Positions 794 through 21,357 are shown, counted from the first letter of the stretch. The stretch: DNA of 41,555 nucleotides from Candidatus Omnitrophota bacterium (GCA_023819605.1 JAMWCB010000001.1:1-41555); one strand, 5' to 3'. Numbers and translations: made by a program. Notes: generated from the sequence alone by a model not told the origin.

Positions 794-1240
794 TCATTTT
801 TGAACGGCATTGGCTGCTGCCGCGTCTTCCCGGCTGCTCAACGACGGCGCGCCCGGCTGTACGAACGTCACGGATTTCACCATCGATGCGCGCACTTTTC
901 GTCCATCATCGCGCGTTTGCGTCACTTCATCATAAGCGACCAATACGGTGTCGCCGAACGACAGATCTTCCCATTTACTGCGGCGGATCAATTTCGTTTT
1001 TTTTCGGTCGATCACAAAAGCCGCTTCCAACCCGGCGCCGCTTGCCGGATCGATCCCATAGTTCACCGACAAAAAATTACCGCTGATGCCGCTAATCTCA
1101 CCGGTCAGTTCTTTTGCGACTACCTGTTTCTTCGGCGCGGCCGCAACGGCCGGATCTCCGGCTAACACATCCGCGCACAACCACGCGCTGCTCACCATGG
1201 CCATCAAAAATGCGCTCCCCATCCTTATATACTGCTGCAT
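794..1240 (-). CDS. Hypothetical exported protein (148 aa)
   Basis: ATG at 1240 is preceded by GGGAGGG. The start overlaps the upstream stop (TAATG, 1238-1242). Signal-like N-terminus MGSAFLMAMVSSAWLCADVLA. No family recognised. Confidence 0.6.
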   Translation of the reverse strand: MQQYIRMGSAFLMAMVSSAWLCADVLAGDPAVAAAPKKQVVAKELTGEISGISGNFLSVNYGIDPASGAGLEAAFVIDRKKTKLIRRSKWEDLSFGDTVLVAYDEVTQTRDDGRKVRASMVKSVTFVQPGAPSLSSREDAAAANAVQK

Positions 1241-2460
1241 TATTCATCCCTCCCTGGCCGATGCTGCTCTTTACGAACCACCCGTATACTGGCAAAGGTA
1301 AAATCCTGCGCCGAATTTCCGTCTCGTCGCACACTGAGCACACCGCGCATCTGTGAATTTTCCACCTCGCCGCGCCATGAAGCGGTTCCGTTCCCGGAAG
1401 ATTGCATTGTTTCCCAAGACAGTAAGGCTTCCTCGCGCGTCACGGAAAAATTACTCGGCCCGAACCCTTGTTCCGTCAAAAAAGCTGAACTGAATTTACC
1501 CTGAAAAAATGTTAGCGCGTCGTTTTTGACGGCTCCATCCGGCGCAACCAAACGAATCCGCCATTCGGTATTTTCTAAATCGCGCACCGTGACGGATGCC
1601 GTTTCAACGACCACTGCCGGCGCTCCACGTTCCTCGACGCGCACCTGCCGCTTTTCCGGGCGCACAAACAACACACCGGCAAACGCGGCCGCGAGAAGAA
1701 TTACCATCAAAACAAACTGCCGCACCGACGAAAATTTCGAACGAGAATTAGAATTACGCGGCTGGTCCGCATCCGGCGCTGTCGGCGCAGGGGCAGGCTG
1801 CCGCATCGCGTATATTTCTTCCTGAACACGCTGCATAAATTCCGGAGATCCGATAATCCCCTTGCGCAATCCTTTTTCCAACTCCGCCGGCTCCTCGCTT
1901 TCTACCCATGCGGCTAAGCGTTCGTCATAACTGCGTTCAGACAAAATAACTTTCAACCCTTCAGAAAACGATTCCAATGGCACGCTTCCCGGCGGGCAGA
2001 GCGCACTATTTCCAGCGGAACGATACCACGCAGAGCTGTTATACGCCACCGGCTTCGCCTGGCCACTGCTTTCGCTTTTTTTTGCCGCCAAATGAATAAT
2101 ATGGCACATCGCCACTACATATACCGGAGAATCTTCCACCACTACTGCCCGGAACCGCTCCCGGAACAAATGGCCTTTACGCTGATACTGTCCGTTATAA
2201 TATTTTGTATACGCCGAATTTAAATTATGCATAAACTGGGATACGCCGGCTTTATTGTCCATGGCCAGCAATAAATGCATCTGCTCCGGCAACAACGCAT
2301 ATGCGCGAATGCCCGCGCCGTATTCCTTAATATATTTCGCCAATAAACTCATGTACATTTCGTAATCGCACTCCTGCGTAAAAATCTGCACTCCCGGTAA
2401 ACTACGGCACGTTATATAATAAACACATCCCTGTATATAAACTCTCGGTAAACGCGGCAT
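1240..2460 (-). CDS. IS200/RayT-like (Y1 HUH transposase fold) domain protein, apparently catalytically degenerate, with TM helix and C-terminal extracytoplasmic domain
   Basis: 406 aa, ATG 2460. The N-terminal ~130 aa follow the REP-associated tyrosine transposase pattern (PRVYIQGCVYYITCR, LLPEQMHLLL, KGHLFRERF). The HUH position reads Q-M-H. The helix that normally carries the catalytic Tyr (Y-I-x-x-N-P) reads MCHIIHLAAKK. A linker follows, then one TM helix (FVLMVILLAAAFAGVLFV) and a ~135-aa C-terminal domain. Confidence 0.7.
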   Translation of the reverse strand: MPRLPRVYIQGCVYYITCRSLPGVQIFTQECDYEMYMSLLAKYIKEYGAGIRAYALLPEQMHLLLAMDNKAGVSQFMHNLNSAYTKYYNGQYQRKGHLFRERFRAVVVEDSPVYVVAMCHIIHLAAKKSESSGQAKPVAYNSSAWYRSAGNSALCPPGSVPLESFSEGLKVILSERSYDERLAAWVESEEPAELEKGLRKGIIGSPEFMQRVQEEIYAMRQPAPAPTAPDADQPRNSNSRSKFSSVRQFVLMVILLAAAFAGVLFVRPEKRQVRVEERGAPAVVVETASVTVRDLENTEWRIRLVAPDGAVKNDALTFFQGKFSSAFLTEQGFGPSNFSVTREEALLSWETMQSSGNGTASWRGEVENSQMRGVLSVRRDGNSAQDFTFASIRVVRKEQHRPGRDE

Positions 2461-2509
2461 ACGCTCATCGCATCCTTTTTCTTTCTTTTACCAATCCCTG
2501 CACCGCTTT

Positions 2510-2558
2510 TGCCTGGCACTTTTTACACCCCAACCCCTGGTGCCTGGCACTTTTTACA
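2510..2558. repeat. 18-bp perfect direct repeat x2 (TGCCTGGCACTTTTTACA), 31-bp period, upstream of the Y1-like gene
   Basis: Copies at 2510-2527 and 2541-2558, read directly. They lie 50-98 nt upstream of ATG 2460 (minus-strand gene). The second copy sits in the palindrome GTGCCTGGCAC. Confidence 0.85.
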
Positions 2559-2560
2559 TA

Positions 2561-2595
2561 AATAAAAAAATACCCAGGCAAAATACTGCCTGGGT
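2561..2595 (-). terminator. Rho-independent terminator (minus strand)
   Basis: On the minus strand: ACCCAGGCA-GTATTT-TGCCTGGGT (9-bp stem, 2572-2595) followed by ATTTTTTTATT (2561-2571). Confidence 0.7.
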
Positions 2596-2985
2596 AAATG
2601 AAATTTCTCTCAGATGTCTTCTTTGGATGAGCAGCCTGCCGATCCCGTAAAACCAGGATGCACGGCTTTGCGTCCTCGTGTTACCACGCACGCTCACACC
2701 CAGCGTGTCCGTCAAAATCCATGACGGAAGTTTGCCTTTTTCTCCTAATAAAATAATACCATGGAATCCCGCATTCTGCAACTTTCGGCGGAATTCCACA
2801 ACCAAGCGAATCCGTTCTAAACCTACCGCACAAAACATGCCGCATCCTTGCGCTTACTGGATCTCGTTGGTTCGTCCCGAGCATCCGCGCTGTCAAAAAC
2901 GCAGACTCGGGTATTTCTTTTACTATCGTTCGGCTACCCGCGCTACCAATCTCCGCTTTTTCTTCCGGCGGTGCGTGTAGTTCAT

Positions 2986-3744
2986 TTACCGTTTACCGGT
3001 AGCGCACAAATACAAAGAAAACTCCTCTTTCCCGTCGGCACGCACCAGCTCGTCCATCCGCTGCTGATCATACGCGGCAATCGCGCAGGCGCCGGCATTG
3101 ATTGCTTCGCAGGCCAGATACAAATTCTGACAGACATGGCCGGCATCCAGAGCGATGACCTTGCCGGCAGCCGCGCCATAGCGCCACTCCATGCGGTAAG
3201 GAACCGCCGTCCAGATGAACGTCGCGGCCGTCGCGGCAAGAAACTCCTGACCCAACGCCGCGGCAACCAATTTCGCGGCTAAACCCGCATCTGCATACAC
3301 GCACACCAATTCATGCGATAAAGGCAAATAACGGTATATCCCCCGCGGCAGCGCTTCAATCCGCAGCGCGCACACATAGGTCTCAAACGCATGCCGCGCC
3401 CCGGCTGACGGCACGGTGCGAAAGGTCGCCGTATCGCCGAACTTCCGCTGCAGCCCCTGCGCCGCCCAGAGCAAAAACGCTGTTTCTTCCAGCGAAAACG
3501 GCTGCGCCGCAAATTTTCGGCGGCTTCGCCGGCTGTTCATTGCGCCGGCCAGATCGACGCTGCCGATACGCGTCCACTGCGCGCGTTTCGGCAAAACGAT
3601 ACGCGCGGCCTGCGGATCGGCCGCTTTTTCAAACGGCGGCGGCGGAATACCTCTGCCCTGATCGGTTTTCGAAAAATCGACCCGCCGGCGCACCGTATCT
3701 TTTAAAAATTCCCGATACTGAACATCCCCGGGTAGGTCGCTCAC
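2986..3744 (-). CDS. SagB/ThcOx-type nitroreductase-family dehydrogenase
   Basis: 252 aa. The GTG start at 3744 forms GTGA with the upstream stop. Nitroreductase-fold motifs typical of the SagB subgroup: NSRRSRRKF, FRTVPSAGARHAFETYV, GIYRYLP, AVPYRMEWRYG, ALDAGHVCQNLYLACEA. Confidence 0.8.
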   Translation of the reverse strand: MSDLPGDVQYREFLKDTVRRRVDFSKTDQGRGIPPPPFEKAADPQAARIVLPKRAQWTRIGSVDLAGAMNSRRSRRKFAAQPFSLEETAFLLWAAQGLQRKFGDTATFRTVPSAGARHAFETYVCALRIEALPRGIYRYLPLSHELVCVYADAGLAAKLVAAALGQEFLAATAATFIWTAVPYRMEWRYGAAAGKVIALDAGHVCQNLYLACEAINAGACAIAAYDQQRMDELVRADGKEEFSLYLCATGKR

Positions 3745-4859
3745 GCGTTCACCTTTTGAAATATTTTCCGGTCGCCGTCGATCATTTTAAAAAGCTGCCG
3801 CGCCTCGCCCAATAATATTTCCGTCGCCCCCATGACAAAATAACCGAACGGCTGCAAGGCCTGATAAAATTTCATAATCAAATGTTCCTGTAAACTCCGG
3901 TTGAAATAAATAAACACGTTCCGGCACAGCACGATATCGACATGCTCCACCGGCAGATCATGGATTAAATCCCGCGCTTCAAAACGCACCATGCTTTTCA
4001 GATGCGGGACGATTTGAAACTCATCCTGCACCGGCAAAAAAAACCGCTGCAACCGCTCGGCGTTGACGTTTTTTACCATCTCCCGCTTAAAACGGGCGGC
4101 CGGCGCCTTGCGAATACTTGCCCGGTCGATATCCGTGCCGATAATTTCCACGGCAAGAGGGTCTGCTTCTTTTTGCATCGATTCATAAAAAAGAATCGCC
4201 AGCGAATAAGCCTCCGCGCCGCACGACGACCCGGCGCTCCACACGCGCACGCGGCGCTGTCCGTTTTTTTTCTTGTGCATAACCACTGCCGGGATAATCC
4301 GTTCCTGCAAAAACCTCCACACCTCCGGGTCGCGGAAAAAACTGGTCACATTGATCGTCAAAGCGTCGAAAAGTTTTTCGTACTCTTCCGCATCGTGAGT
4401 CAACACCTGCAAATACTCGGAAAACGTTTCCACGCGTTTGGCGCGCATCCGCACACCAACGCGCCGCTTCAATAAATCCTCGCGGTACTGTGAAAAATCC
4501 ACGCCCCGGTCGGCTTTGATTTGCCGCAATAAAAGCTCGTACGCTTCCGCCGTATCGGCGGCGCGCACCGCCGAAGTCTTATGCACGGGATTCGCGCTGA
4601 CTACGTTTACCGCGGCCATCAACTCGCGCAGGATAACCGCGCTGTTTTCCGCCTTGGAATTCTCTACCAAGAGCACCATCGCGCCTTTATCCGTCGTGAC
4701 GTATTTCGGCGGCACGCGCGTCAGGGCATACGCTAATATATCTTCATAACACTGTTCGCAGGTGCAAATATCTTTGCGCGTCGCCAGCATATTTTTTAAA
4801 TAATTTCTGGCCAGCGTTTCCATGATATTATAGGGGGCTGTTCCTTCACCGCTCGTCAT
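3741..4859 (-). CDS. ComFB-domain / CheR-type protein-glutamate O-methyltransferase fusion (paralog 1)
   Basis: N-terminal ComFB-type domain (NIMETLARNYL...DICTCEQCYEDILAYALTRVPPKYVTT...VVSANP). Then the CheR N-terminal helical domain (DFSQYREDLLKRRVGVRMR...TINVTSFFRD) and the SAM-MTase core (RVWSAGSSCGAEAYSLAI, IGTDID, LCRNVFIYFN). Start set at ATG 4859 by alignment with paralog 2; the ORF-track start is 4913. Confidence 0.85.
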   Translation of the reverse strand: MTSGEGTAPYNIMETLARNYLKNMLATRKDICTCEQCYEDILAYALTRVPPKYVTTDKGAMVLLVENSKAENSAVILRELMAAVNVVSANPVHKTSAVRAADTAEAYELLLRQIKADRGVDFSQYREDLLKRRVGVRMRAKRVETFSEYLQVLTHDAEEYEKLFDALTINVTSFFRDPEVWRFLQERIIPAVVMHKKKNGQRRVRVWSAGSSCGAEAYSLAILFYESMQKEADPLAVEIIGTDIDRASIRKAPAARFKREMVKNVNAERLQRFFLPVQDEFQIVPHLKSMVRFEARDLIHDLPVEHVDIVLCRNVFIYFNRSLQEHLIMKFYQALQPFGYFVMGATEILLGEARQLFKMIDGDRKIFQKVNA

Positions 4860-7125
4860 GCGCGCGCTTCTTTCCCTGTTTTTTTCGCAAAAAATCCCGG
4901 CGGATATCGGCAAACTCGAAGAGATGCTGTTGCCAACCGCGCGGTTTGGTATCCGTAGCTAAAAGGGCGTACACTTCCTGATCCGTCTGCGCCGACAGCA
5001 ACCGGCCGCGGTTTTCCGGTCGGCTAAAAAAAGCGCTGACCTGCGCGATAAACTCTAAATACGGCTCCGCGGCTTCCTCCGGCGCCAAGGTCAGCACGAA
5101 AATCTGCGCCGGTTTTCCGTCGAGCGACTCGAAACCGGCGCCGTCTTTTTTTATGCCGATCGCCACCCGCAGAGAATCTACCACGCGCGTACGGGCGTGG
5201 GGCAAGGCGATGCCTTCCTGCATGCCGGTGGACATATGCCGCTCCCGCTCCATCACTTCCCGCACGACAGTATCCTGTTCGGCTGGGGGCAATTGGCCGG
5301 CCTGCGCGAGCAGCGTCACTAATTCCTGAACAATCTCCTCTTTACTGTTGCCCTGCAGGGCAACGCGTACCGCCTCCGGATGAACATATTTTGCCAAAGA
5401 CTTCCTTCGACGATGTGCGGCCGGCGGCGGATTTTCAAAAATCTTCCGGCCGATTTCCATCCGTTCCGTGACTTTTTCAAGATTTTTTATCACGGATTCG
5501 AACTGCGCCAGCGCTTCATAAAAAAGCGTGTGCACAAACGTCGCGTCTTCTTCCGCGCAGTCAAAAATAAATTCATCCGGCGCATAGCCGAAAGAAATAA
5601 ACGTATTATCGCGCCGCAGTTCATAGCGTTTTTCCTCATGAATCAACAACGCATAGAACCCGTCCTGTTCAAACGCCTGCAAAACCTTCTGCTGCAAAAG
5701 CTCCGCGGTTTCGCGGTTCGGAATGCGATAGCGGATCCGCCGGCGCTGCAAATTCAGACCGTCGGTCTGCCGCAGCGCCGGTTTGTTGCGCGACAGGGCC
5801 GCGGCCATCAACGGCGGCGAAAAAAGCGTCGTCATGAAGACCATGAACACCGCGCTACTGAATACATTTTGCGAAATAATGCCGGAGGCCAGGCCGATCC
5901 CGGCGATGATCAACGCCACCTCTCCCCGCGGCACCATCCCCAATCCGATGATCGACGCGCCGTGCAGCGTAAAATTCAAGCAATACGCCGGCAGCATACC
6001 GCCGAAAAATTTTCCCAGCACGCTGAAGAGCAGATAAATCAGCCCAAAGGACAGAAGCTGCGGCGAAAATAATTCCCGGATATTCACCATCATCCCCATC
6101 ACGCAAAAAAACACGGGCACCATCAATTGCTGAAAAACGCGCAAATGCTTGCGCAGGACAATGGCCAAATCGGTTTTGGACAGGGAAATTCCGGCTACAT
6201 AGGCGCCGATAATCATCGCCAGCCCGAATTTTTCAAACAAACCCGCGGCGAGCAGAGCCAGCGCAAACCCGATAATCGTAATCGATTCCGTATTCCCGCT
6301 GCGTTTGAGCACACGGCTGAACGGCCGGGCAAAGGCGATTCCCAAGGCGCTGGCTCCCAGCCATAGCCCCACGGTTTTCAAAAAAACTGCCGCCAATGCC
6401 GGCAGGTCAAATCCGGCCTTGCGCCGAATCATCCCCATGATTATCGCCAAAGCCACAATACCGAGCACGTCGTCTATAATTGCCGCGGAGAGAATCGTGG
6501 TGCCTTCCGGGGAATCCATTTTCCGCTTATCGGCAAGAATACGCGCGCTGATTCCCACCGACGTGGCCGTGCCGATAATCCCCAGGAATAATACCGCCGG
6601 ATCCGTAAACCGGTGCGCCTGTCCGGTGGCCGTGCCTAAAAAGAAAACCGCGCTGAGCGCGCAAAACACGAAACTTACCACCACGCCGCCGCAACCGACC
6701 AGCGCGCCGGCCAAAGAAAAGCGGAATAAAACGTCCAAATTGGTTTCCAGGCCGACCATAAACAACAGAATAATCGAGGCCAGGGTCGCGACGCCGTACA
6801 GTTCCAACGTAACCGGGAATGCCGGTTGAACCGGAAATAACCCCTGGGCAAATCCCGGCAGGGGGATACTCCCGAGAAGATAGGGGCCGATAATCACCCC
6901 GCTAAAAAATTCTCCCATGACCGCCGGCACGTTCAGGGCATGAAAAAACGCGCCGCCGAGCCGGGCGGCGACTAAGATGATCCCCACCTGAAAAATAAAC
7001 ATTGTCGTCTGTTCGATAAACGCGCCGTCCGCGCCGCCGGACGCACAACAAAACGCCGGGGCCAGGCAGACGAACAGCCCCGCGCCGCATACACTGCCGA
7101 TACTCCGCACTATTTTACTGCCCAT
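4846..7125 (-). CDS. CPA2-type cation:proton antiporter fused to a C-terminal PTS EIIA type-2 (fructose/Ntr-like) domain
   Basis: Start moved to ATG 7125 (MGSKIVRSIGSVCGAGLFVCL...), because the track start 7329 lies inside the upstream gene. Multi-TM Na+/H+-exchanger-family core (VMGEFFSGVIIGPYLLG...). A ~150-aa cytoplasmic linker follows. The C-terminal EIIA-2 domain carries the GIALPHAR His motif. Confidence 0.85.
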   Translation of the reverse strand: MGSKIVRSIGSVCGAGLFVCLAPAFCCASGGADGAFIEQTTMFIFQVGIILVAARLGGAFFHALNVPAVMGEFFSGVIIGPYLLGSIPLPGFAQGLFPVQPAFPVTLELYGVATLASIILLFMVGLETNLDVLFRFSLAGALVGCGGVVVSFVFCALSAVFFLGTATGQAHRFTDPAVLFLGIIGTATSVGISARILADKRKMDSPEGTTILSAAIIDDVLGIVALAIIMGMIRRKAGFDLPALAAVFLKTVGLWLGASALGIAFARPFSRVLKRSGNTESITIIGFALALLAAGLFEKFGLAMIIGAYVAGISLSKTDLAIVLRKHLRVFQQLMVPVFFCVMGMMVNIRELFSPQLLSFGLIYLLFSVLGKFFGGMLPAYCLNFTLHGASIIGLGMVPRGEVALIIAGIGLASGIISQNVFSSAVFMVFMTTLFSPPLMAAALSRNKPALRQTDGLNLQRRRIRYRIPNRETAELLQQKVLQAFEQDGFYALLIHEEKRYELRRDNTFISFGYAPDEFIFDCAEEDATFVHTLFYEALAQFESVIKNLEKVTERMEIGRKIFENPPPAAHRRRKSLAKYVHPEAVRVALQGNSKEEIVQELVTLLAQAGQLPPAEQDTVVREVMERERHMSTGMQEGIALPHARTRVVDSLRVAIGIKKDGAGFESLDGKPAQIFVLTLAPEEAAEPYLEFIAQVSAFFSRPENRGRLLSAQTDQEVYALLATDTKPRGWQQHLFEFADIRRDFLRKKQGKKRAHDER

Positions 7126-7741
7126 CGGTATATTCCCTATGGTTACGCAGCGCGCGCCCCGCCGCAGCCGAGGATTTGCCGCTGCTTCCCGCGCCGACTG
7201 CCGGAAAACCGTCGGCCGGATTCCAAAGCCCCCGTTCCTGCGCGCGCGCGTCTGATTGCAACCGCCGCAACAACTCCGCATATTTAACGTTCGGCGGCAT
7301 GGTATAGACCGCGGCATAGCCGTCGGCAACCAGTTTTCCGTTCACCAACGTCCCGTCCGGCAAAAACACATACGCCAACAACCGTCGATACCGATCGCGG
7401 CGCTCAACATCAAATTCCAAACGGACCGCCTTTGCCTCGACCAGCGACCGCGTATAGAGCCGGGCGCGCGCTCCCTGCGCCGCGATTACCGTCTGGTCGC
7501 GTTTGGTGCGCGCGCTGTCCCGCTGCATTTTACCTGAACGGTGGCATTCCGGCGTATCGATACCGAGCAAACGCACCCGCTCGCCGTTCGCGAGCAGCAG
7601 CGTATCGCCGTCGATAACTTTTTCCACCACGATCTGCCGGTACTGCGCAGCGTTCCAGTAGGTAGCCACGCCGGTTCCCACGGCGAGCAGCGCCACCCAC
7701 GCCGCTGCGGCGGCGCGCGCCAGCCGGCGCCGGCCGCTCAC
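7115..7741 (-). CDS. Membrane-anchored thermonuclease (staphylococcal nuclease, SNase family)
   Basis: SNase motifs: VIDGDTLLL, RVRLLGIDTPE, RDRYRRLLAYVF, NGKLVADGYA, ARAQERGLW. The N-terminal hydrophobic anchor is LARAAAAAWVALLAVGTGVATYW. Preferred start is GTG 7741, which forms GTGA with the upstream stop. The track start 7861 would overlap the upstream gene by 124 nt. Confidence 0.8.
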   Translation of the reverse strand: MSGRRRLARAAAAAWVALLAVGTGVATYWNAAQYRQIVVEKVIDGDTLLLANGERVRLLGIDTPECHRSGKMQRDSARTKRDQTVIAAQGARARLYTRSLVEAKAVRLEFDVERRDRYRRLLAYVFLPDGTLVNGKLVADGYAAVYTMPPNVKYAELLRRLQSDARAQERGLWNPADGFPAVGAGSSGKSSAAAGRALRNHREYTDGQ

Positions 7742-8829
7742 GCCGCTTTCAATTTTTGATATATCCGGCACGCCGCATCCACTTCCCGGAACAATTCCCG
7801 CGCTTCTCCCAGAAGCGTTTCGGAATTGCCCATAATAAAATACCCGCCTTCCGCCAAACAATAATAGTATTTCATAATCAACTGTTCCTGCAGGCTGCGG
7901 TTAAAATAAATAAAAACATTGCGGCAGAGGATCATATCCACGCCGCTGATCCCCGCATCGTGGATTAAATTCCGTTCTTCAAAATGCACGGCGGTTTTAA
8001 TATGCGGCACGACGATGAACTCGTCGTCCACCGGCAGGAAAAACCGTTTCAGGCGCCGCGCATTGACATTGCGCAGGACATCGCGCCGATAATGCCCTTT
8101 GCCGGCCTGGCGCAGGCACGCTTTATCGATATCCGTGGCGACAATCTCAAACCGCACCCCGCGGGGATGCGTTTCCAAAAGTTCATAGAGCATAATCGCC
8201 AGTGAATACGGCTCTTCTCCGTGCGAACACCCGGCGCTCCAAATACGCACCGGCGATCCCGCCGGCGCCTTACGGCCGATAATCTCGGGAACAATTTCAT
8301 TTTCCAATTTTTCCCACACCGCGTCATCCCGGAAAAACGACGAGACATTGATCGTTAAAACATCGAATAATGCTTCATATTCCTGCGGCTCATGCGTGAG
8401 AATCTGCAGGTATTCGGGATACGTCTCCACCTTTCGCTCGCGCATGCGCACGGCGATGCGGCGCTGGAGCATACGCTCGCGGTACTGGGAAAAATCGACG
8501 CCGCGGTCAAGCATGATTTGCTTCATGAGCAACTTATACGCGTTCTGCCGATCATCCTGCTTTTCATGGCGCGGGTTGCTGCTGACCACCTGGATGGCGT
8601 TGAGCAGCTCTTTTAAAATCAACGATGATTGCTCGACGGCAACCTGCTCGATATGCGTATGCATGGCGCCGGCCTCCGACGTCACATAGCGGGCGGGGAT
8701 CCGGCTGAGCGCGTACGCGTAGATATCGTCACGGCAGCGTTTACACGTACAGATATCCCGGCGCGGCCGCAACATATCGTCGAGGTGCTTCGCAACGATG
8801 GCTTCCATGATATTCCGCGCTCTAACCAT
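7738..8829 (-). CDS. ComFB-domain / CheR-type protein-glutamate O-methyltransferase fusion (paralog 2)
   Basis: Same architecture as 3741-4859: NIMEAIVAKHL...DICTCKRCRDDIYAYALSRIPARYVTS (ComFB), DFSQYRERMLQRRIAVRMR...TINVSSFFRD (CheR_N), RIWSAGCSHGEEPYSLAI / ATDID / LCRNVFIYFN (MTase). ATG 8829 overlaps the cheC stop by 8 nt. Confidence 0.85.
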   Translation of the reverse strand: MVRARNIMEAIVAKHLDDMLRPRRDICTCKRCRDDIYAYALSRIPARYVTSEAGAMHTHIEQVAVEQSSLILKELLNAIQVVSSNPRHEKQDDRQNAYKLLMKQIMLDRGVDFSQYRERMLQRRIAVRMRERKVETYPEYLQILTHEPQEYEALFDVLTINVSSFFRDDAVWEKLENEIVPEIIGRKAPAGSPVRIWSAGCSHGEEPYSLAIMLYELLETHPRGVRFEIVATDIDKACLRQAGKGHYRRDVLRNVNARRLKRFFLPVDDEFIVVPHIKTAVHFEERNLIHDAGISGVDMILCRNVFIYFNRSLQEQLIMKYYYCLAEGGYFIMGNSETLLGEARELFREVDAACRIYQKLKAA

Positions 8830-9478
8830 GGTTCATTTTCCGCAACGACTGACGGGCGGCGTGTAAACTGCGTAATTCCGCGCACATCACCGCCGTTATT
8901 TCCCGGCAGGCGTGCGGCGACAAGATCAGCAAAAAAGACCCGGACAAACGGCTGGACATCGCCCGGAAGGTCATGGTATGCACGTACACCTGCTGCTGAA
9001 AATCAGCCGGCTTGACACCGTAACTCATCACGTCCGACAGCATACCGCTGGTCAGCACCGGAATGGACGGGATCACCGACTTGCGCAACAAAACGCTCAT
9101 CGTATTCGAATACGCCGAAACCACGATATTACCGATTTCTTTAATCGACGAAATGCCCATTTCCGTCAGAAATCCGCAGCTTTCCCCCGCCTTACTGCGA
9201 AACAACGACGCAAAGTCATAGGCGGTTTTCTCTTCAAAAACCAGCGAAACGAAACCGCTAATGCCGGCCAACATCTGGCAATGCACGCCGATGACCATCG
9301 CGTCATTGATGCGGTAATTCCGCGCGATATCCCGCACGGCAATTGAGTCCAAGGACGGCGCTTCCAGGACCACGGAGCGCTTGATCATTTGCGAAAAAGC
9401 CTGTGTCGAATTGCCGGCGCAGATACTGCCGACTTCCCTGATAATATCCGGTTGGGTTAAACGCCGTTCGCCTGCCAT
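8822..9478 (-). CDS. cheC: CheC-family (CheC/CheX/FliY-like) CheY-P phosphatase
   Basis: Two copies of the D/S-x3-E-x2-N-x22-P motif. The first is DIIREVGS-x22-P, with N replaced by S. The second, SSIKEIGN-x22-P, is intact. Start set at ATG 9478 (MAGERRL), which has GGGAGG 6 nt upstream and lies downstream of the predicted promoter. The track start is 9556. Confidence 0.75.
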   Translation of the reverse strand: MAGERRLTQPDIIREVGSICAGNSTQAFSQMIKRSVVLEAPSLDSIAVRDIARNYRINDAMVIGVHCQMLAGISGFVSLVFEEKTAYDFASLFRSKAGESCGFLTEMGISSIKEIGNIVVSAYSNTMSVLLRKSVIPSIPVLTSGMLSDVMSYGVKPADFQQQVYVHTMTFRAMSSRLSGSFLLILSPHACREITAVMCAELRSLHAARQSLRKMNHG

Positions 9479-9527
9479 ATCGACCTCCCTGTACGCCGCA
9501 GGTAATGGATACCTCTTATGTTTTCGT

Positions 9528-9556
9528 AGTATACCACAGCGCGATGCGGCGGACAA
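9528..9556 (-). promoter_or_regulatory. Sigma70-like promoter for the cheC operon
   Basis: Minus strand: TTGTCC (9556-9551), 17-nt spacer, TGg-TATACT (extended -10; hexamer 9533-9528). It lies ~45 nt upstream of ATG 9478. Confidence 0.4.
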
Positions 9557-9650
9557 TCATTGATTTCCGGTAATTTAAAAATTAAAATCAGGGCGGGGCG
9601 GAACGTCCGGCCACTCTCACCGTCCGTTGTATAAAAACCGCGCCGCCGCC

Positions 9651-10592
9651 TCAAAAAAACTGCTGCATATCCGCGGGTATCGGCGCGGTAAACTCCATCC
9701 ACTGCCCGGTGCGGGGATGGGAAAAACCGAGACGATACGCATGCAGCGCCTGCCGGTTTATTCGCTGCGCGATGCCGGTTTTCCCGTAGGTCGTGTCTCC
9801 CAACAACGGATGGCCCAGATGCGCCAAATGGACCCGGATTTGATGCGTACGGCCGGTTTCCGGATATACCTCCACGACCGTAAAGTGGCCGGTGCGTTTG
9901 AGCACCCGGTATACCGTGACCGCCGCGCGGCTATTGCTATAGAGCACCTGCATTTTTAAACGATTTGCCGGATTGCGCCCCACGGGCGCGTCGATGCACC
10001 CTTCGTCATGCTCGACGCTGCCCAGAACAACCGCCACATACACTTTGCGGACCGTATGTTCTTTAAACTGCGCGGCGAGTTTCCAATGCGCGGTGTTCGT
10101 CTTGGCAATGACCATGACGCCGGAGGTGTCCTTATCCAGGCGGTGCACAATGCCCGGCTTGGCCGCGCCGTTTAAATCGGATAATTTTCCGGTATGCGCG
10201 GCCAAGGCGTTGACCAACGTGTCCTGCCGATGCCCGGCCGCCGGATGAACAACCAACCCGGCGGGCTTGTCGACGACAAGCACCTCCTCGTCTTCAAACA
10301 GAATATTCAACGGCAACGATAGGGGAAGAATCTCCTGTTCTTCCGCTGCTGCCTCGATCCGCGCCGCGATATAATCACCGTTCTGCACCTGATAATACGG
10401 CTTCACCGTCAGGCCGTTGACCTGCACGTTCCCGGATAAAATAGCGGTTTTTACCTGCTGCCGGGAAAAATGACCGGTGAGCCGGCTGCTCAACCATCGG
10501 TCCAGACGCGCCGGCGCGTCCTGACCGGAAACGGTGAATTCTTTTTTTTCCAGCACGGTAATCCTTTCCCCAGGGTACCGATCAAACAACAA
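9651..10592 (-). CDS. rluD: RluA-family 23S rRNA pseudouridine synthase (RluD-like) with S4 domain
   Basis: S4-like N-terminus (RLDRWLS). Catalytic motif HRLDKDTSGVMVIAK. C-terminal motifs GRTHQIRVHLAHLGHPLLGD and LHAYRLGFSHP. The start is uncertain: TTG 10592 abuts the lspA stop, and GTG 10556 is the alternative. Confidence 0.9.
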   Translation of the reverse strand: MLFDRYPGERITVLEKKEFTVSGQDAPARLDRWLSSRLTGHFSRQQVKTAILSGNVQVNGLTVKPYYQVQNGDYIAARIEAAAEEQEILPLSLPLNILFEDEEVLVVDKPAGLVVHPAAGHRQDTLVNALAAHTGKLSDLNGAAKPGIVHRLDKDTSGVMVIAKTNTAHWKLAAQFKEHTVRKVYVAVVLGSVEHDEGCIDAPVGRNPANRLKMQVLYSNSRAAVTVYRVLKRTGHFTVVEVYPETGRTHQIRVHLAHLGHPLLGDTTYGKTGIAQRINRQALHAYRLGFSHPRTGQWMEFTAPIPADMQQFF

Positions 10593-11117
10593 CTATGCAA
10601 ACGTATGTTTTCGACAGAGCAGGTACACCAATCCCGCCGCGCCGCAGGTAATCAGGCTATCCGCAAGATTGAACACCGGCCAAACCCGGAAATCCAAAAA
10701 ATCGACGACATATCCCCAGCGGACCCGATCGATCAAATTCCCCGTTGCGCCGCTGAGGACGAGCAGCAGCGAATACCGCCAAATGTGCAGATGCAGCGGA
10801 CGGTGAAATTCGGTGCGCCGGATCAACAACCAGAGAATCAGCACGATCGCCGCGATCGAAATATAGGCTAAGATCCAATTTTTATGGCGAAACAATCCGA
10901 ACGCGGAACCGGTATTATACACGAGCGTGATGTGCAGAATATTGGGGATTACCGGAATGCTTTCATTTTGATGCAGCCGCTTGAGCACCGCGAGTTTTGC
11001 AATCTGATCAAAAAAAACCAGCGCAACGCCGAACCATACCTGAAAAACCGCCGCGGCGACATCCTTAACGGCCACGCTTTTCCTGTTTTTGCTTACAGTC
11101 GCGGCACAGCGTCGCAT
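10593..11117 (-). CDS. lspA: Lipoprotein signal peptidase II
   Basis: Motifs NTGSAFGLF, GATGNLIDRVRWGYVVDFLDF and FNLADSLITCG, with 4 TM segments. The start is uncertain. ATG 11117 overlaps the dksA-like gene by 53 nt. GTG 11075 gives ~160 aa with an 11-nt overlap. Confidence 0.9.
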   Translation of the reverse strand: MRRCAATVSKNRKSVAVKDVAAAVFQVWFGVALVFFDQIAKLAVLKRLHQNESIPVIPNILHITLVYNTGSAFGLFRHKNWILAYISIAAIVLILWLLIRRTEFHRPLHLHIWRYSLLLVLSGATGNLIDRVRWGYVVDFLDFRVWPVFNLADSLITCGAAGLVYLLCRKHTFA

Positions 11118-11442
11118 ACGGAATCGCTTTCAAACGGTCTTTGGCGATCTTTTCACCGCAGCTTTCGCAATCGCCGTAGGAACTTTCCTCGATTTTGCGG
11201 ATCGCTTCGTCGATGCGATAGAGCATCTCCTGATCCCCGCTGACCCGCCCCAGAGAAATTTCCCGTTCGAAACTGCCGCTGGCGGCATCGGCCATATGCA
11301 CGGAATAAGACGATAAATCGCCGCTGGCTTCGCGCAGCGATTTTTTCATCGATTCGTTTCCGATATTTTTAATCTCGTCGGACACCTGCTCGCGCAACTC
11401 CAGCAGCTGTTTTTTTAAATCCTGCAGTTCTTTCTTGTTCAT
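11065..11442 (-). CDS. DksA/TraR-family C4 zinc-finger protein
   Basis: Start moved to ATG 11442 (MNKKELQDLKK...), preceded by AGGAAAGGAG. The track start 11628 lies inside ileS. Coiled-coil N-terminus, then CESCGEKI...CRDC, a four-Cys zinc finger. Confidence 0.8.
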   Translation of the reverse strand: MNKKELQDLKKQLLELREQVSDEIKNIGNESMKKSLREASGDLSSYSVHMADAASGSFEREISLGRVSGDQEMLYRIDEAIRKIEESSYGDCESCGEKIAKDRLKAIPYATLCRDCKQKQEKRGR

Positions 11443-11461
11443 CAGCGGAGCGCTCCTTTCC

Positions 11462-14311
11462 TCATTCTGCCTTCTGCGTCCGCGGTAAATTCCCGTAACA
11501 GCGCGTACACAGTGACGGATGCTCTGTGTGACTGCCAACCCCTGCGGCATAATTCCAACACCGCACACATTTTTCGCCGTCGGCATGCGCCACGCCGACA
11601 AAAAGCGTCCCGGAAATTGTTTTTCCATCTTCCAAGGTAAGTTCTATAGTATAACCATTGCCCCCGGGGCTGTCAACATTTTCTTCGATCACCACCTGCG
11701 AAACGATAAAAATAGCCGGCCATTGATCCTGATACGGCACAAGCACCGCGGCCAGCGGGTCATCCCGGCGGTACCGCAGCGTCACCCGCGCGTCTAAACT
11801 ATTGCCGATCAATTTCACGCCGCGCGCGGCTTCCAGTTCCTTCAACACCGCTTCCCGCACCCGGACCAGCGACTGCCAACGCCCTTGCAGAGCGCCGTCC
11901 GCGGCGCAGGCTTTAACCGCCGGCCAGGCCGTAAAAAAAATACTCTCCTCTTTCGCCCCCGGCATCGCCTGGTACGCCTCCTCGGCGGTAAACGGCAACA
12001 CCGGCGCGATGATCCGCACCAGCACACTCAAAATTTCATACAGCGCGGTCTGCCCGGAACGCCGCGGCAGCCCGGCCGCCGCAAACGTATACATCCGGTC
12101 TTTGAGAATATCCAAATAAAATGAGCTCAGCTCGACGACACAGAAATTATAGACTAATTTCACCGCCTGATAGAAGGTAAACGCCTCGTAGGCGCGGCCG
12201 ACCTGCTGCAGCAACGCATGCGCCGCGGAAACCGCCCAGCGGTCGATCTCGAGCATCGACGCATAGTCCACCTGATCAGCCTGCGGATTAAAATCAGAGA
12301 GATTGCCCAGCATAAATTTCCAGGTATTGCGGATTTTGCGGTAACTTTCGCTGACCCGCGATAATATTTCATTGGACATGCGCACATCGTCGCTGTAGTT
12401 CGACGAAGCGATGCATAAACGCAGCACGTCGGCGCCTAACTTGTCGATTACTTCCTGCGGGGAGATGACATTACCCCGCGATTTGGACATTTTCCGGCCC
12501 TCGCCGTCGACGGTAAACCCATGGGTCAACACCGTCTTAAACGGCGCCGTGCCGTCCATACCCATTGCCGCCAATAACGACGACTGGAACCACCCGCGGT
12601 GCTGATCGGATCCTTCCAAATACAAATCCGCCGGATAGCCGAGATTTTTCCGGCCGGCCGCCCGTAATACCGCGTAATGGCTCACTCCGGAATCGAACCA
12701 GACATCGAGGATATCCGTTTCTTTGGCAAAATTCTTTCCCCGGCACTGCGGACAGGCAAACTCCGCCGGCAACAACTCCTGCGGCGGCCGGATAAACCAG
12801 CAGTCCGTGCCTTCCCGCTCGACCAGCGCGGCAACCTGCTCGATTACTTCCGGGCTGAGAATCGTCGATTGACAACCGCGGCAATAGAACGCCGGAATCG
12901 GCACGCCCCAGAGACGCTGCCGGGATAGGCACCAATCCGGGCGATTATGAATCATCCCGGCGATTCGATTCTGCCCGGATTCCGGGACCCAGCACACGTC
13001 CTGAATTTTCGCCAGCGCCCGTTCACGCAACTGATCATGATCGATGCGCATAAACCACTGTTCGGTAGCCCGAAAGAGAATCGGTTCCTTGCACCGCCAG
13101 CAATGGGGATACGAATGTTGTATGGTGCCGGCAAATACTAACGCGCCGCGGCTCTGGAGCAGCTCGATCACCCGTTTGGCGGCTTTCTGTATATGCAGGC
13201 CGCCGACCTCCGGAACGTCCGCGCCGAAACGGCCCTTCGCATCAACCTGCATAACTGTTTCCAAGCCGTAGCGTCTGCCGACCTGAAAATCTTCCGCGCC
13301 GTATCCCGGCGCGATATGCACCACGCCGGAGCCGTCTTCCGCGCTCACGTAATCGGCGAGGACCACTTTTCCCGGGCGAGACAAAAACGGATGCGTATAC
13401 TGCACATGTTCCAATTGCCGGCCCGCGAGCGTGCCGACGACCGAACTGCCGCTGATCCCGGCGCGAGCCAACACGGCCGGCGCCAGTTTTTCTTCGATCA
13501 CATAAACTTCCCGGTCGTTAACCCGGATCAGCGCGTAGGTAAAATCCGGATGCACCGCGCAGGCGACGTTCCCCAGCAATGTCCAGGGAGTGGTCGTCCA
13601 AATCACCATGAACAAAACGCTGTTCCCTAAATTCGGCGTTCCCGCGGGCAGCGCACCGGATACGGCAAACCGGACAAAAATCGAAGCCGAGGTGTGCTCT
13701 TCATACTCAACCTCCGCTTCGGCCAACGCGGTCTCACACTGCGCGCACCAATTCACCGGTTTACAGCCGCGATAGATCAGTCCGTTGCGCACCAACATGC
13801 CGAACGCGCGGATAATCCCCGCTTCATAGTGCGGCGCGAGCGTCAAATAGGGGTTATCCCATTCGCCGAAAATTCCCAGCCGTTTAAATTCTTCGCGCTG
13901 AACGGCGACAAATTTCAACGCGTAATCATGCGCTTTTTTCCGAAAATCGACCTGTTCGACCTCATCTTTGCGCTTGCCCAACTCTTTAAACAATTGATGT
14001 TCCACCGGCAGCCCGTGGCAATCCCAGCCGGGAACATACGGCACGCGGTATCCGGCCATCGTTTTATATTTGACGATAATGTCTTTGAGAATTTTATTCA
14101 AGGCGTGGCCGATATGGATATGCCCGTTGGCATATGGCGGGCCGTCATGCAGAACATACACGGGGCGGCCGGCAGCCCGCTGCTGCATGGCGCCGTAAAT
14201 ATCCCGGCGCTGCCACTGTTCCAGGAACGCCGGTTCGCGTTGCGGCAGATTGGCTTTCATCGAAAAATCAGTCTGCGGCAAATTCAATGTGTTTTTATAA
14301 TTAATTTCCAT
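11462..14311 (-). CDS. ileS: Isoleucine--tRNA ligase (bacterial type 1, C-terminal zinc finger)
   Basis: MEINYKNTLNLPQTDFSMKANL, HIGH motif (PYANGHIHIGHALN), KMSKS motif present, C-terminal CVRCWNY...CTRC. Start at ATG 14311 rather than the track start 14344. Confidence 0.96.
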   Translation of the reverse strand: MEINYKNTLNLPQTDFSMKANLPQREPAFLEQWQRRDIYGAMQQRAAGRPVYVLHDGPPYANGHIHIGHALNKILKDIIVKYKTMAGYRVPYVPGWDCHGLPVEHQLFKELGKRKDEVEQVDFRKKAHDYALKFVAVQREEFKRLGIFGEWDNPYLTLAPHYEAGIIRAFGMLVRNGLIYRGCKPVNWCAQCETALAEAEVEYEEHTSASIFVRFAVSGALPAGTPNLGNSVLFMVIWTTTPWTLLGNVACAVHPDFTYALIRVNDREVYVIEEKLAPAVLARAGISGSSVVGTLAGRQLEHVQYTHPFLSRPGKVVLADYVSAEDGSGVVHIAPGYGAEDFQVGRRYGLETVMQVDAKGRFGADVPEVGGLHIQKAAKRVIELLQSRGALVFAGTIQHSYPHCWRCKEPILFRATEQWFMRIDHDQLRERALAKIQDVCWVPESGQNRIAGMIHNRPDWCLSRQRLWGVPIPAFYCRGCQSTILSPEVIEQVAALVEREGTDCWFIRPPQELLPAEFACPQCRGKNFAKETDILDVWFDSGVSHYAVLRAAGRKNLGYPADLYLEGSDQHRGWFQSSLLAAMGMDGTAPFKTVLTHGFTVDGEGRKMSKSRGNVISPQEVIDKLGADVLRLCIASSNYSDDVRMSNEILSRVSESYRKIRNTWKFMLGNLSDFNPQADQVDYASMLEIDRWAVSAAHALLQQVGRAYEAFTFYQAVKLVYNFCVVELSSFYLDILKDRMYTFAAAGLPRRSGQTALYEILSVLVRIIAPVLPFTAEEAYQAMPGAKEESIFFTAWPAVKACAADGALQGRWQSLVRVREAVLKELEAARGVKLIGNSLDARVTLRYRRDDPLAAVLVPYQDQWPAIFIVSQVVIEENVDSPGGNGYTIELTLEDGKTISGTLFVGVAHADGEKCVRCWNYAAGVGSHTEHPSLCTRCYGNLPRTQKAE

Positions 14312-14360
14312 ACCCCTGCCCTCAAATATTCTGGCTCCCATCACCGTTCATATTGTACGA

Positions 14361-14389
14361 TTCATAACAAATACGCTAAAATTTTGCAA
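14361..14389 (-). promoter_or_regulatory. Candidate sigma70 promoter upstream of ileS
   Basis: Minus strand: TTGCAA (14389-14384), 17-nt spacer, TATGAA (14366-14361). It lies ~50 nt upstream of ATG 14311. Confidence 0.35.
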
Positions 14390-14525
14390 GCCAAATTTAT
14401 CCGCGGCCGTTATCGCCGGCCGCATATTCGGCCGCGCCGGGCAACCTGCGTCCGGAAACAACCGCACCGCGCGCTTGCCCCGCTCCGAAGCGTGGGACTA
14501 TGCCGCCGCGGCAAACCTTGCGGCT

Positions 14526-15326
14526 TCAGCGTTTGCTCAGGCGCCGGGCCCGCGCCGCCGCAGCCTGAACCGTCTTGACCATCATCCGTTCCAAGCCGGC
14601 TGCCTGCAAGACCGCCAAACCGGCTTCCGTCGTCCCTCCCTTGGAGGCGACGCGACGGACCAATTCCTCCGGCGCAATGCGCAGCCGCGCCAAAACTCCC
14701 GCTGTCCCGCACAGCGTCTGCCGGCAAAAAAGCGCGGCCAGATCCGCCGGCAAACCGGCGCGGCGCGCGGCCTTCACAAATGCCGCCAGAAAAAACGCGA
14801 TAAATCCCGGACCGCTGCCGCTCACGGCCGTAACGGCGTCCATCTGTTTCTCCGGAACTTCAAACAGGGCGCCGACCGTTCCGAAAAGAATCCGTGTCAG
14901 CCGGCCGGCCTGCGCGGTGGCATAACGCCCCCGACAAAATGCCGAAATACCCTCACCGATCAATGCCCCCATATTCGGCATAACCCGCACCACCGGCACA
15001 TTCCCGCTAAAAAATTTTTCAATATATCCGGTCCCGATCCCGGCCGCAATAGAAATAACGGTATGCCGGCTCTGCACGCGCGCGGCGATTTCCGTCAATA
15101 CCCCGTCCATTTCCTGCGGCTTGACGCAGAGCACGACGACCGCCGACCGCTCGACCAATTCCGCCAGGCTCAGGCGCGCCATCCGGTATCGCCGCGCCAT
15201 TAATCGCTGGCGCGCCGCCTGGACATCGTGGCCGGCGACGGTAAACCGGTCATGTCGATAGATCCCCCGCAGAATCGCTTCGCCCATATTTCCCAAGCCG
15301 ACAATGCCTACGCCGATTCGCTTCAT
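14526..15326 (-). CDS. proC: Pyrroline-5-carboxylate reductase
   Basis: N-terminal Rossmann motif IGVGIVGLGNMGEAI. C-terminal motifs SGSGPGFIAFF and VASKGGTTEAGL. The ATGA-type overlap with yggS is 4 nt. Confidence 0.9.
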   Translation of the reverse strand: MKRIGVGIVGLGNMGEAILRGIYRHDRFTVAGHDVQAARQRLMARRYRMARLSLAELVERSAVVVLCVKPQEMDGVLTEIAARVQSRHTVISIAAGIGTGYIEKFFSGNVPVVRVMPNMGALIGEGISAFCRGRYATAQAGRLTRILFGTVGALFEVPEKQMDAVTAVSGSGPGFIAFFLAAFVKAARRAGLPADLAALFCRQTLCGTAGVLARLRIAPEELVRRVASKGGTTEAGLAVLQAAGLERMMVKTVQAAAARARRLSKR

Positions 15327-16069
15327 TGGCTGCCTCCAAAAATCGCCGTGCCCACGCGCACTAACGTCGCGCCTTCCTCAATCGCCGTTTCGAAATCATG
15401 ACTCATGCCCATCGACAAAACCGCCAAAGGCTGCCGGCCGGTTGCCGCGAACTCGTCATTGATCCGATCGAACAGGCGCCGCAAGCGGCGAAAATACGGC
15501 CGCGCCGCTTCCGGATCTTCAACCTGCGGCGCCATACCCATCAATCCCCGCAGGCGCACCAGCGGGTATGCGCGCAGCGCAGAAATCAATGCCCCGGCCG
15601 ACGCCGCGGCGATCCCGAACTTTTGTGTTTCTTCGGAAATATTCACCTGAATCAAAACATCCACCGGCCGGCCGCTGCCTGCCGCCCGCGCCTGCAGGCA
15701 CGCCGCTAAAGGTATACTGTCCACGGATTGAATCAAATGCACCCACGGCAGCACCTTCGCCGCTTTATTCGTCTGCAGGTGTCCGATGAGGTGCCAGCGC
15801 AACCGCTGAAACTGAACCGGCGAAAGCGCGGCCTGTAATTGCTGATACTTACGCAACGCTTCCTGCACGCGATTCTCGCCTAACTCCGTCACGCCGCAGT
15901 GCACGGCGGCGCACACCTGCTCAATAGCGGCCTGCTTGGTCACGCAGACTACGGCAATCTCTTCCCGCCGCCGCCGGCTGCGCTGCGCGGCGGCGCAGAC
16001 CCGCCGCTCGACGTCTGCCAAACGCAGCCGCACCGCCTCCCGCACCATACCCGCATCCGCGCCAGCCAT
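15323..16069 (-). CDS. yggS: YggS-family pyridoxal-phosphate homeostasis protein
   Basis: Motifs VTKQAAIEQV, FGENRVQEA, WHLIGHLQTNKAK-like (HLIGHLQTNKAAKV), LSMGMSHDFETAIEEGATLVRVGTAIFG. Confidence 0.85.
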   Translation of the reverse strand: MAGADAGMVREAVRLRLADVERRVCAAAQRSRRRREEIAVVCVTKQAAIEQVCAAVHCGVTELGENRVQEALRKYQQLQAALSPVQFQRLRWHLIGHLQTNKAAKVLPWVHLIQSVDSIPLAACLQARAAGSGRPVDVLIQVNISEETQKFGIAAASAGALISALRAYPLVRLRGLMGMAPQVEDPEAARPYFRRLRRLFDRINDEFAATGRQPLAVLSMGMSHDFETAIEEGATLVRVGTAIFGGSQ

Positions 16070-16071
16070 CG

Positions 16072-17505: not shown

Positions 17506-17515
17506 AGACTTCTCC

Positions 17516-19728: not shown

Positions 19729-19811
19729 AATCCCCGCTCATCAGACACGTTTCGGATAGATTCATCGTTACCCTCGTCAGCCTGCGGCGGCCCGGCAGGG
19801 CTGTAGTTCCG

Positions 19812-19841
19812 ATGATACCATGGTTATTCCGAAACTGTCAA
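19812..19841 (-). promoter_or_regulatory. Sigma70-like promoter for the kinase operon
   Basis: Minus strand: TTGACA (19841-19836), 18-nt spacer, TGg-TATCAT (hexamer 19817-19812). It lies ~85 nt upstream of the start codon. The -35 box is the edge of a repeat also found at 26339-26391. Confidence 0.45.
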
Positions 19842-21350: not shown

Positions 21351-21357
21351 CAGCAAC

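Follow-up and report, generated by a model that had tools for sequence, protein, structure and literature searches.

Six consecutive genes on the minus strand of a Candidatus Omnitrophica contig, each overlapping the next start-on-stop, raise the question of whether such complete overlap marks a functional module. The contig belongs to a metagenome-assembled genome (MAG), and the window analyzed here is its whole length of 41,555 bp. The genes occupy positions 2986–9556 and encode, in order, a CheC-like protein, a fusion of a ComFB domain with a CheR methyltransferase (ComFB-CheR 1), an SNase-family nuclease, an antiporter fused to an EIIA domain, a second ComFB-CheR fusion (ComFB-CheR 2) and a SagB-like reductase. 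The initial annotation had proposed that they form a novel module of obligatorily co-expressed proteins. All six open reading frames (ORFs) were present when ORFs were called in the window, and the domain assignment of each protein was backed by profile searches. Comparison with related genomes, however, suggested that a chemosensory cassette linked to a second messenger has been extended in this lineage, and that the six genes are not a new six-part machine.

To assess conservation, the neighborhoods of ComFB-CheR and CheC-like homologs were compared, which yielded ten distinct related loci (L002, L004, L089–L093, L095, L097 and L105). In all ten, a CheC-like gene (44–53% identity) lies immediately upstream of a ComFB-CheR gene (57–64% identity), and in four of them (L002, L004, L093 and L095) a small stand-alone ComFB gene is found between the two. 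An SNase gene was detected in one locus, L089, where the ortholog (57% identity) has the same position directly after ComFB-CheR. Homologs of the antiporter-EIIA fusion, of the second ComFB-CheR and of the SagB-like reductase occurred in none of the ten. The test of gene order in relatives thus failed for three of the six genes and largely for a fourth, and the idea that the six proteins represent a conserved functional module is not supported. The conserved core consists of the first two genes, those for the CheC-like protein and ComFB-CheR 1; the nuclease is a sporadic neighbor, and the remaining three genes are lineage-specific passengers. In one additional locus (L001), ComFB-CheR was present without a CheC-like gene. 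Junctions in the relatives range from a 4-nt overlap (L090 and L105) to gaps of 3–33 nt; it is tight linkage that is conserved, and not overlap as such.

The upstream region is conserved as well. In every locus that is long enough, the cassette is preceded, as in the window, by genes for histidine kinases, a REC-GAF-GGDEF protein, yggS, proC, ileS, a dksA-like gene, lspA and rluD. Five relatives (L001, L002, L089, L091 and L105) also have lgt before rluD, and four of these five (all but L105) have a stand-alone REC gene, neither of which is present in the window. Most syntenic loci contain a PilZ gene within ~3 kb downstream, and PilZ genes were also found beside ComFB-CheR in L001 and L104; those downstream of ComFB-CheR are small and single-domain (119–138 aa). 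The relatives' PilZ, GNAT and small conserved proteins had no tblastn match in the window. We consider it probable, at about 60%, that the locus carries a signaling cassette specific to an Omnitrophota clade, composed of a cyclic-dinucleotide-gated CheR and a CheC-like protein, which was extended here by unrelated co-transcribed genes. It should be noted that the earlier statement that no system of such composition has been described is true of the accidental six-gene set only, as the ComFB-CheR architecture in Candidatus Omnitrophota was already in print (UniProt A0A1G1PT98; PMC12448109).

The overlaps themselves were confirmed. Computed with the start codons of the initial annotation, they coincide exactly with those reported earlier at all five junctions: 8822–8829 (ATGGTTAG, 8 nt) between the CheC-like gene and ComFB-CheR 1, 7738–7741 (GTGA, 4 nt) between ComFB-CheR 1 and the nuclease, 7115–7125 (11 nt) between the nuclease and the antiporter, 4846–4859 (14 nt) between the antiporter and ComFB-CheR 2, and 3741–3744 (GTGA, 4 nt) between ComFB-CheR 2 and the reductase. 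Translated from these starts, ComFB-CheR 1, the antiporter and ComFB-CheR 2 are as long as their NCBI entries (363, 759 and 372 aa, respectively), and the CheC-like start is most likely the ATG at 9478, which is preceded by AGGGAGG and yields a product of 218 aa, like the deposited one. As a rough baseline, overlaps were found at ~4/25 of the other same-strand junctions of the contig, versus 5/5 in the cluster, and several further same-strand junctions are gaps of 0–11 nt. Overlaps in the cluster are therefore denser than the contig background, though this genome packs genes tightly anyway. For genome scans, this is a reason for caution: where a genome is compact, full start-stop overlap alone is not enough to identify a functional module.

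Pattern scans recovered both transcription signals that had been noted previously, a sigma-70-like promoter candidate, which sits in the 172-nt gap after rluD (9556–9528), and a hairpin with a T-run near 2561–2595. No clean terminator was found by the terminator scan in the intergenic stretch from the reductase stop to a predicted riboswitch (see below), and none lies between the genes; however, a terminator-like hairpin with a stem of 7 G-C pairs and a trailing T6 is located within the 5' part of the antiporter ORF (6970–6951, minus strand). This hairpin could be an attenuator of distal-gene transcription or a chance match. Terminator-like sites totaled 20, versus 13.0 in shuffled sequences (standard deviation 4.6), an excess that is not clear. 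It is plausible that the six genes are co-transcribed and translationally coupled: a single promoter-like site lies upstream, each gene overlaps the next, and a clean terminator is lacking from the intergenic sequence. The further step, from shared expression to joint function of all six, is unsupported, as three of the genes never recur. The features of the locus are listed in Table 1.

Table 1. Features of the locus and of its surroundings in the window
Feature	Position	Strand	Basis or remark
CheC-family protein, 218 aa	8822–9478	-	Pfam match, structure-sequence similarity, motif alignment
ComFB-CheR 1, 363 aa; ComFB, CheR_N and CheR S-adenosylmethionine (SAM)-dependent methyltransferase domain	7738–8829	-	Pfam, structure matches, alignment
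SNase-family thermonuclease homolog, 208 aa, N-terminal hydrophobic anchor	7115–7741	-	Profile match
CPA2 cation:proton antiporter fused to PTS EIIA(Ntr)-type domain, 759 aa	4846–7125	-	Na_H_Exchanger and PTS_EIIA_2
ComFB-CheR 2, 372 aa; ComFB, CheR_N and CheR; paralog of copy 1	3741–4859	-	Pfam, sequence comparison
SagB-type nitroreductase-fold dehydrogenase, 252 aa	2986–3744	-	TIGR03605
Sigma-70-like promoter candidate	9528–9556	-	TTGTCC, 17 nt, TATACT, upstream TG; 9/12 matches in pattern scan
c-di-GMP-I (GEMM-I) riboswitch aptamer	2627–2746	-	Rfam RF01051, 38.2 bits versus gathering score of 35
Intrinsic-terminator hairpin (11 pairs, 2596–2571) and T-run	2561–2596	-	Pattern scan
406-aa protein: N-terminal IS200/REP-type Y1 transposase-like domain, transmembrane segment, C-terminal extension	1240–2460	-	
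148-aa protein, hydrophobic N-terminus, no family match	794–1240	-	1-nt overlap with 406-aa gene
Membrane protein with methyl-accepting chemotaxis protein (MCP) signaling domain, 419 aa	20097–21356	-	Profile match; canonical signaling hairpin; outside operon
REC-GAF-GGDEF diguanylate cyclase	16072–17505	-	Profile match
Two histidine kinases, preceding the GGDEF gene	17516–19728	-	Profile match

ComFB-CheR 1 is the conserved core gene of the locus, and its domains were analyzed together with those of the second copy. Both proteins matched ComFB (PF10719, 74.1 bits for copy 1 and 66.2 bits for copy 2), CheR_N (PF03705, 45 and 52 bits) and CheR (PF01739, 172 and 171 bits). Across 15 family members, the two window copies among them, the CheR motifs FFRD, WSAG..G.E, TDID and CRNVFIYF do not vary (F165, F166, R167 and D168; W197, S198, A199 and G200; C302 through Y308). 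In Salmonella CheR, the Arg of FFRD and the Tyr of IYF are catalytic and the glycine-rich motif binds SAM. As judged from their sequences, the CheR_N domain and the catalytic motifs are typical of receptor methyltransferases. The best solved relatives of the fusion are the CheR structures 5FTW, 5XLY and 1AF7, of which 5XLY is CheR1 with MapZ bound to cyclic di-GMP (c-di-GMP), and an AlphaFold model confirmed the CheR fold, matching 5FTW, 1BC5 and 5XLY.

The ComFB domain aligns with BsComFB (4WAI, E = 1.3e-6) and with CdgR (8HJA, E = 0.0067), and its Cys triad is retained. The ComFB family, recognized only recently as a third widespread family of c-di-GMP receptors, comprises receptors of c-di-GMP and cyclic di-AMP (PMC12448109). 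In BsComFB, the ligand-contact residues are Asp33, Ala36, Leu37, Asn40, Arg/Lys41, Val47 and Tyr55, and a D33/K41 double mutation abolishes c-di-GMP binding (PMC12448109). The counterparts of this pair, D35/R43, are kept in both copies, and the pair is kept in 13 of the 15 family members. Copy 1 also keeps A38 and V49 and has a Tyr, which is still hydrophobic, at the position of Leu37, and in copy 2 the D, A, R and V of the contact positions are kept. It is plausible from this pattern, with Asn40 and Tyr55 substituted in both copies (see below), that the ComFB domains bind a cyclic dinucleotide.

The closest match to ComFB-CheR 2 is ComFB-CheR 1 (54% amino-acid identity), and among the 120 best matches no ortholog was nearer to it. 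Conserved patches in the DNA of the two copies align ungapped and in register, shifted by exactly 4000 nt, and show 70–79% nucleotide identity (3864–4250 versus 7864–8250). From this similarity and the common register, ComFB-CheR 2 is a local duplicate of ComFB-CheR 1. Tandem ComFB-CheR pairs were also found in other lineages (L103, L008 and L006), where Pfam misses the N-terminus of the second copy and the DICTCxxC signature is kept. A scan of a genome collection with the ComFB-CheR alignment used patterns in the generic CheR domain, and 74 of the 80 loci contained ordinary CheR from other phyla; near-full-length matches were limited to L005–L010.

The CheC-like protein is a more divergent family member. 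Its match to the Pfam CheC model (PF04509) is weak (26.8 bits, cutoff 22), and it shows full-length similarity to Thermotoga maritima CheC (1XKR) and to 2F9Z (E = 2e-12, residues 9–153). The active-site motif of the CheC/CheX/FliY family of CheY-P phosphatases, D/S-x3-E-x2-N-x22-P, occurs in two copies. The second site is intact (S110, E114, N117 and P140, in the form S-x3-E-x2-N-x22-P) and invariant in five aligned orthologs. The protein appears to have one canonical site, as in CheX-type members. In contrast to the known phosphatases, it belongs to a small subfamily of 31 clusters, in which all clusters named by source are from Omnitrophica/Omnitrophota, and neither a CheD nor a CheY gene adjoins it in the window. 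Many cluster members are located on contigs equal in size to contigs with ComFB-CheR matches. A metagenome scan with the CheC-like alignment returned 11 loci.

Two distant relatives of this protein were observed in other settings. In L100, a CheC relative (26% identity) is part of a classical flagellar cluster (2448–15146) that also encodes CheD, a MinD/FlhG-like ATPase, proteins of the CheW-REC and EAL-HDOD types and, immediately ahead of FliD, a 181-aa protein with a ComFB domain; in this other organism, CheC is linked with ComFB and with the turnover of c-di-GMP. In L098, a tandem CheC-like pair (7326–8606; 31–34% identity to the subfamily) is found beside an efflux operon for outer-membrane, HlyD and AcrB (RND) proteins, and no CheR or ComFB was found near these genes. 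Neither the efflux neighborhood of L098 nor the classical flagellar cluster of L100–L102 represents the same cassette.

What process would such a cassette serve? The window contains an MCP-domain gene 11 kb upstream of the CheR genes, adjoining the kinase/GGDEF block, and its product is a candidate for methylation by the CheR proteins; the REC-GAF-GGDEF cyclase is a candidate local source of c-di-GMP. In a more distant member of Omnitrophota (L009), ComFB-CheR is followed by cheY and then by cheA. Profile scans detected no CheA, CheW, CheB or stand-alone CheY anywhere in the 41.6-kb window, either adjacent to the cluster, as would be expected in a canonical che operon, or elsewhere. The initial annotation had stressed this absence of core chemotaxis genes; the four genes are indeed missing, but an MCP-signaling protein is present, and given this protein and the L009 arrangement, the lack of cheA, cheW and cheY within 41 kb is weak evidence. 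In L103 and L008, the tandem ComFB-CheR pairs lie beside pilin or type IV pilus genes, and an MshEN-PilB ATPase gene is immediately upstream of ComFB-CheR in L007; pilins, PilM, secretin and MshEN-PilB are the pilus components encoded near ComFB-CheR in these three loci. In L104, ComFB-CheR adjoins two PilZ genes. These neighbors, together with those in L100, place the ComFB-CheR/CheC family in chemosensory, motility and c-di-GMP contexts.

A c-di-GMP-I riboswitch is located at the 3' end of the cluster, 240 nt after the reductase stop. Its aptamer has the conserved GGCAAAC and GACGCAAAGCC cores and scores above the Rfam gathering threshold; it differs from typical members in a 50-nt insertion in the first hairpin. 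The region folds with a z-score of -5.4 relative to shuffled sequences. The 11-pair hairpin that follows the aptamer after 30 nt had been taken as the terminator of the operon. As it directly follows the aptamer, it is most likely the expression platform of the riboswitch, and the six-gene transcript probably meets its first clean stop there as well. The riboswitch probably gates the next two genes (1240–2460 and 794–1240) and any read-through from the operon; with no clean terminator between the reductase stop and the riboswitch, we infer that read-through of the six-gene transcript would meet it. A possible promoter at 2781–2753 (TTGCAG, 17 nt, TATTAT, with TG two bases before the second hexamer) was identified by eye, outside the scoring of the scan. 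An Rfam search found no riboswitch in the loci of nine relatives, which hold PilZ genes in that region, and no PilZ gene was found in the window. Among the loci examined, the riboswitch is specific to this contig, and it provides an independent, predicted c-di-GMP-responsive element at the same locus that is new here. The Y1 transposase-like membrane protein encoded downstream is an unusual cargo for a c-di-GMP riboswitch.

Based on these data, a mechanism can be proposed for the cassette of CheR and CheC-like protein. A cyclic dinucleotide, plausibly c-di-GMP made by the syntenic REC-GAF-GGDEF cyclase, would bind the ComFB domain and alter the activity or the oligomeric state of the attached CheR. 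This change would determine how far MCP-type receptors, for instance the protein encoded at 20097–21356, are methylated, with the kinase genes of the chemosensory pathway presumably located elsewhere in the genome and a type IV pilus or other motility or surface behavior as the likely output. The CheC-like partner might act as a phosphatase on a CheY-type receiver or curb the same adaptation branch in some other way. The antiporter, the duplicated ComFB-CheR and the reductase would have been added in this lineage and would share the transcript but, as far as the evidence goes, not the function, and the riboswitch and terminator would stand at the 3' end where relatives carry the PilZ gene.

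A broader version of this proposal is tentative, and we regard it as doubtful. Omnitrophota might possess a previously uncharacterized adaptation unit made of a ComFB-fused CheR, a dedicated single-site CheC-like protein and small PilZ proteins, in which a second messenger directly sets receptor methylation in a pathway that controls type IV pili, for instance when host cells are attached to or preyed upon. In the window, this unit would be duplicated, joined by translational coupling with an ion transporter and a secreted nuclease, and followed by the c-di-GMP riboswitch, so that the whole locus answers one signal.

Several observations weigh against the cassette as we read it. Two contact positions of ComFB are changed in each copy (BsComFB numbering), Asn40 to Ser and Tyr55 to His in copy 1, and Asn40 to Thr and Tyr55 to Val in copy 2, which leaves both binding and nucleotide specificity putative. 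The AlphaFold model has a predicted template modeling score (pTM) of 0.60 and does not define the contact between ComFB and CheR. The first site of the CheC-like protein is degenerate (D-x3-E-x2-S): D11 and E15 are kept, and Ser18 replaces Asn in all five aligned orthologs. The riboswitch scores just 3 bits over the family threshold, and cheA, cheW and cheY are absent from the contig. In addition, the relatives compared are just 44–64% identical, and selection for stoichiometric co-expression could explain the complete overlap.

The changed contact positions also speak for a different role for ComFB, that of a zinc-stabilized dimerization or targeting module and not a sensor, which might pair the two CheR paralogs or dock CheR on a pilus or receptor complex, with a methyl acceptor that may not be a classical MCP. 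Conservation of the residues assigned to dimerization in the literature (Asn4, Glu7, Asp33 and Tyr46, BsComFB numbering) and of the Cys triad agrees with such a role, as do the free small ComFB gene in some relatives and the recurrence of tandem ComFB-CheR pairs in several lineages, which heterodimers would fit. However, retention of the D33/K41 pair in both copies and in most of the family, a neighborhood rich in c-di-GMP parts (GGDEF, PilZ, MshEN and riboswitch), and CheR_N and catalytic motifs typical of receptor methyltransferases are more readily accommodated by a sensor, and we consider a purely structural role unlikely.

We judge it very improbable that the six genes form one integrated module, in which methylation by CheR and dephosphorylation by CheC would control ion flux through the antiporter and/or processing of extracellular nucleic acid by the nuclease, independent of chemotaxis. 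Such a module would explain the density of overlaps relative to the rest of the contig, the single upstream promoter-like site, the recurrence of the nuclease directly after ComFB-CheR in L089 and the absence of CheA, CheW and CheB from the window. Against it stand the ten syntenic loci, none of which has the antiporter, the second CheR or the reductase, the wide occurrence of the self-contained antiporter-EIIA in unrelated neighborhoods, an MCP encoded in the window and the association of ComFB-CheR with cheY-cheA or pilus genes in other Omnitrophota. It might also be suspected that the stretch from the antiporter to the reductase does not exist in the genome and arose by chimeric assembly of the MAG contig, since synteny with relatives stops after the nuclease and the similar patches of the two CheR copies are of a kind able to mislead assemblers. 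Yet the two copies are not nearly similar enough to be collapsed or wrongly joined, intact ORFs overlap in frame at each junction, and GC content and skew are even across the region; a chimera is hardly credible.

The cassette of CheR and CheC-like protein can be compared with several known systems. In Pseudomonas aeruginosa, the PilZ protein MapZ, when bound to c-di-GMP, inhibits CheR1 and thereby lowers MCP methylation (PMC6370697). By analogy, a c-di-GMP receptor is proposed here to control CheR and hence MCP methylation; the CheR1-MapZ structure (5XLY) is among the best structure matches, and the relatives have small PilZ genes just downstream of ComFB-CheR. The putative sensor in the window would differ in being a ComFB and not a PilZ domain, and in being fused to the enzyme, and the window itself has no PilZ partner. 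The likeness to the ComFB/CdgR receptors of cyclic dinucleotides includes the Pfam domain, the Cys triad and the Asp/Lys-Arg pair, apart from the two changed contact residues, as well as the same fusion in the same phylum; the published account gives the architecture only and does not cover the CheC-like partner, the PilZ neighbors, the tandem duplication or the riboswitch (PMC12448109). As for pili, neighborhoods in distant Omnitrophota provide the link, with pilin, PilM, secretin and MshEN-PilB genes beside ComFB-CheR, whereas no pilus genes occur in the window. Chemosensory systems that control type IV pili have their own CheR, namely PilK in Pil-Chp and FrzF in Frz. The lifestyle of Omnitrophota is thought to depend on surface contact. 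If the proposal is correct, a CheR with a built-in ComFB sensor would allow a second messenger to act directly on chemoreceptor adaptation with no adaptor protein, and would offer a handle on signaling in these uncultivated bacteria. The comparison narrows the focus from six proteins to two and one candidate receptor.

The passenger genes can be described briefly. A defense-system reading found no support and was dropped, as the matches returned by PADLOC were limited to one of a generic SNase kind and a weak one to a methyltransferase. The EIIA domain of the antiporter carries an IALPH histidine motif, and the antiporter appears to bring its own regulatory input through this domain. The fusion is common in Omnitrophota and was also found in bacteria labeled Auribacterota, Elusimicrobiota, Chlamydiota and Thermodesulfobacteriota, with the best homologs being ~50% identical; three of its neighborhoods were examined and were unlike each other and unlike this locus, with no link to CheR. 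The reductase scored 102.9 bits against the SagB domain model TIGR03605 (cutoff 78.4), and window-wide Pfam scans of the ORFs detected neither a cyclodehydratase/YcaO (SagCD) partner nor a precursor-peptide domain. A second nitroreductase-family gene (24761–25399) is among the few plus-strand genes of the contig, in which genes and GC skew are nearly all minus-strand.

Some additional observations were made around the cassette. Relative to L001, L002, L089, L091 and L105, the syntenic stretch of the window at 9651–19728 mixes signaling and housekeeping genes ahead of the cassette. Between the riboswitch terminator and the gene start at 2460, a 26-nt element (TGTAAAAAGTGCCAGGC...) occurs in two direct copies (2502–2527 and 2533–2558), the core of which, GCCTGGCA, is also complementary to an arm of the terminator; these repeats could provide alternative pairings or a binding site. 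A 94-aa ORF (2554–2838) that overlaps the riboswitch is probably spurious. A Y1_Tnp gene is also present near the cassette in L090 (9135–9785). A small protein of 55–74 aa with the motif YVRGKWISTKYYxIWQEYYD and no Pfam match recurs downstream of ComFB-CheR, after PilZ in L001 (12210–12410) and L002 (13130–13354), and ~300 nt after ComFB-CheR in L090 (3092–3259). Finally, the two PilZ genes and ComFB-CheR of L104 (Omnitrophota) adjoin a called gene on the minus strand (12157–21089) that runs off the locus and has a product of 46,785 residues.

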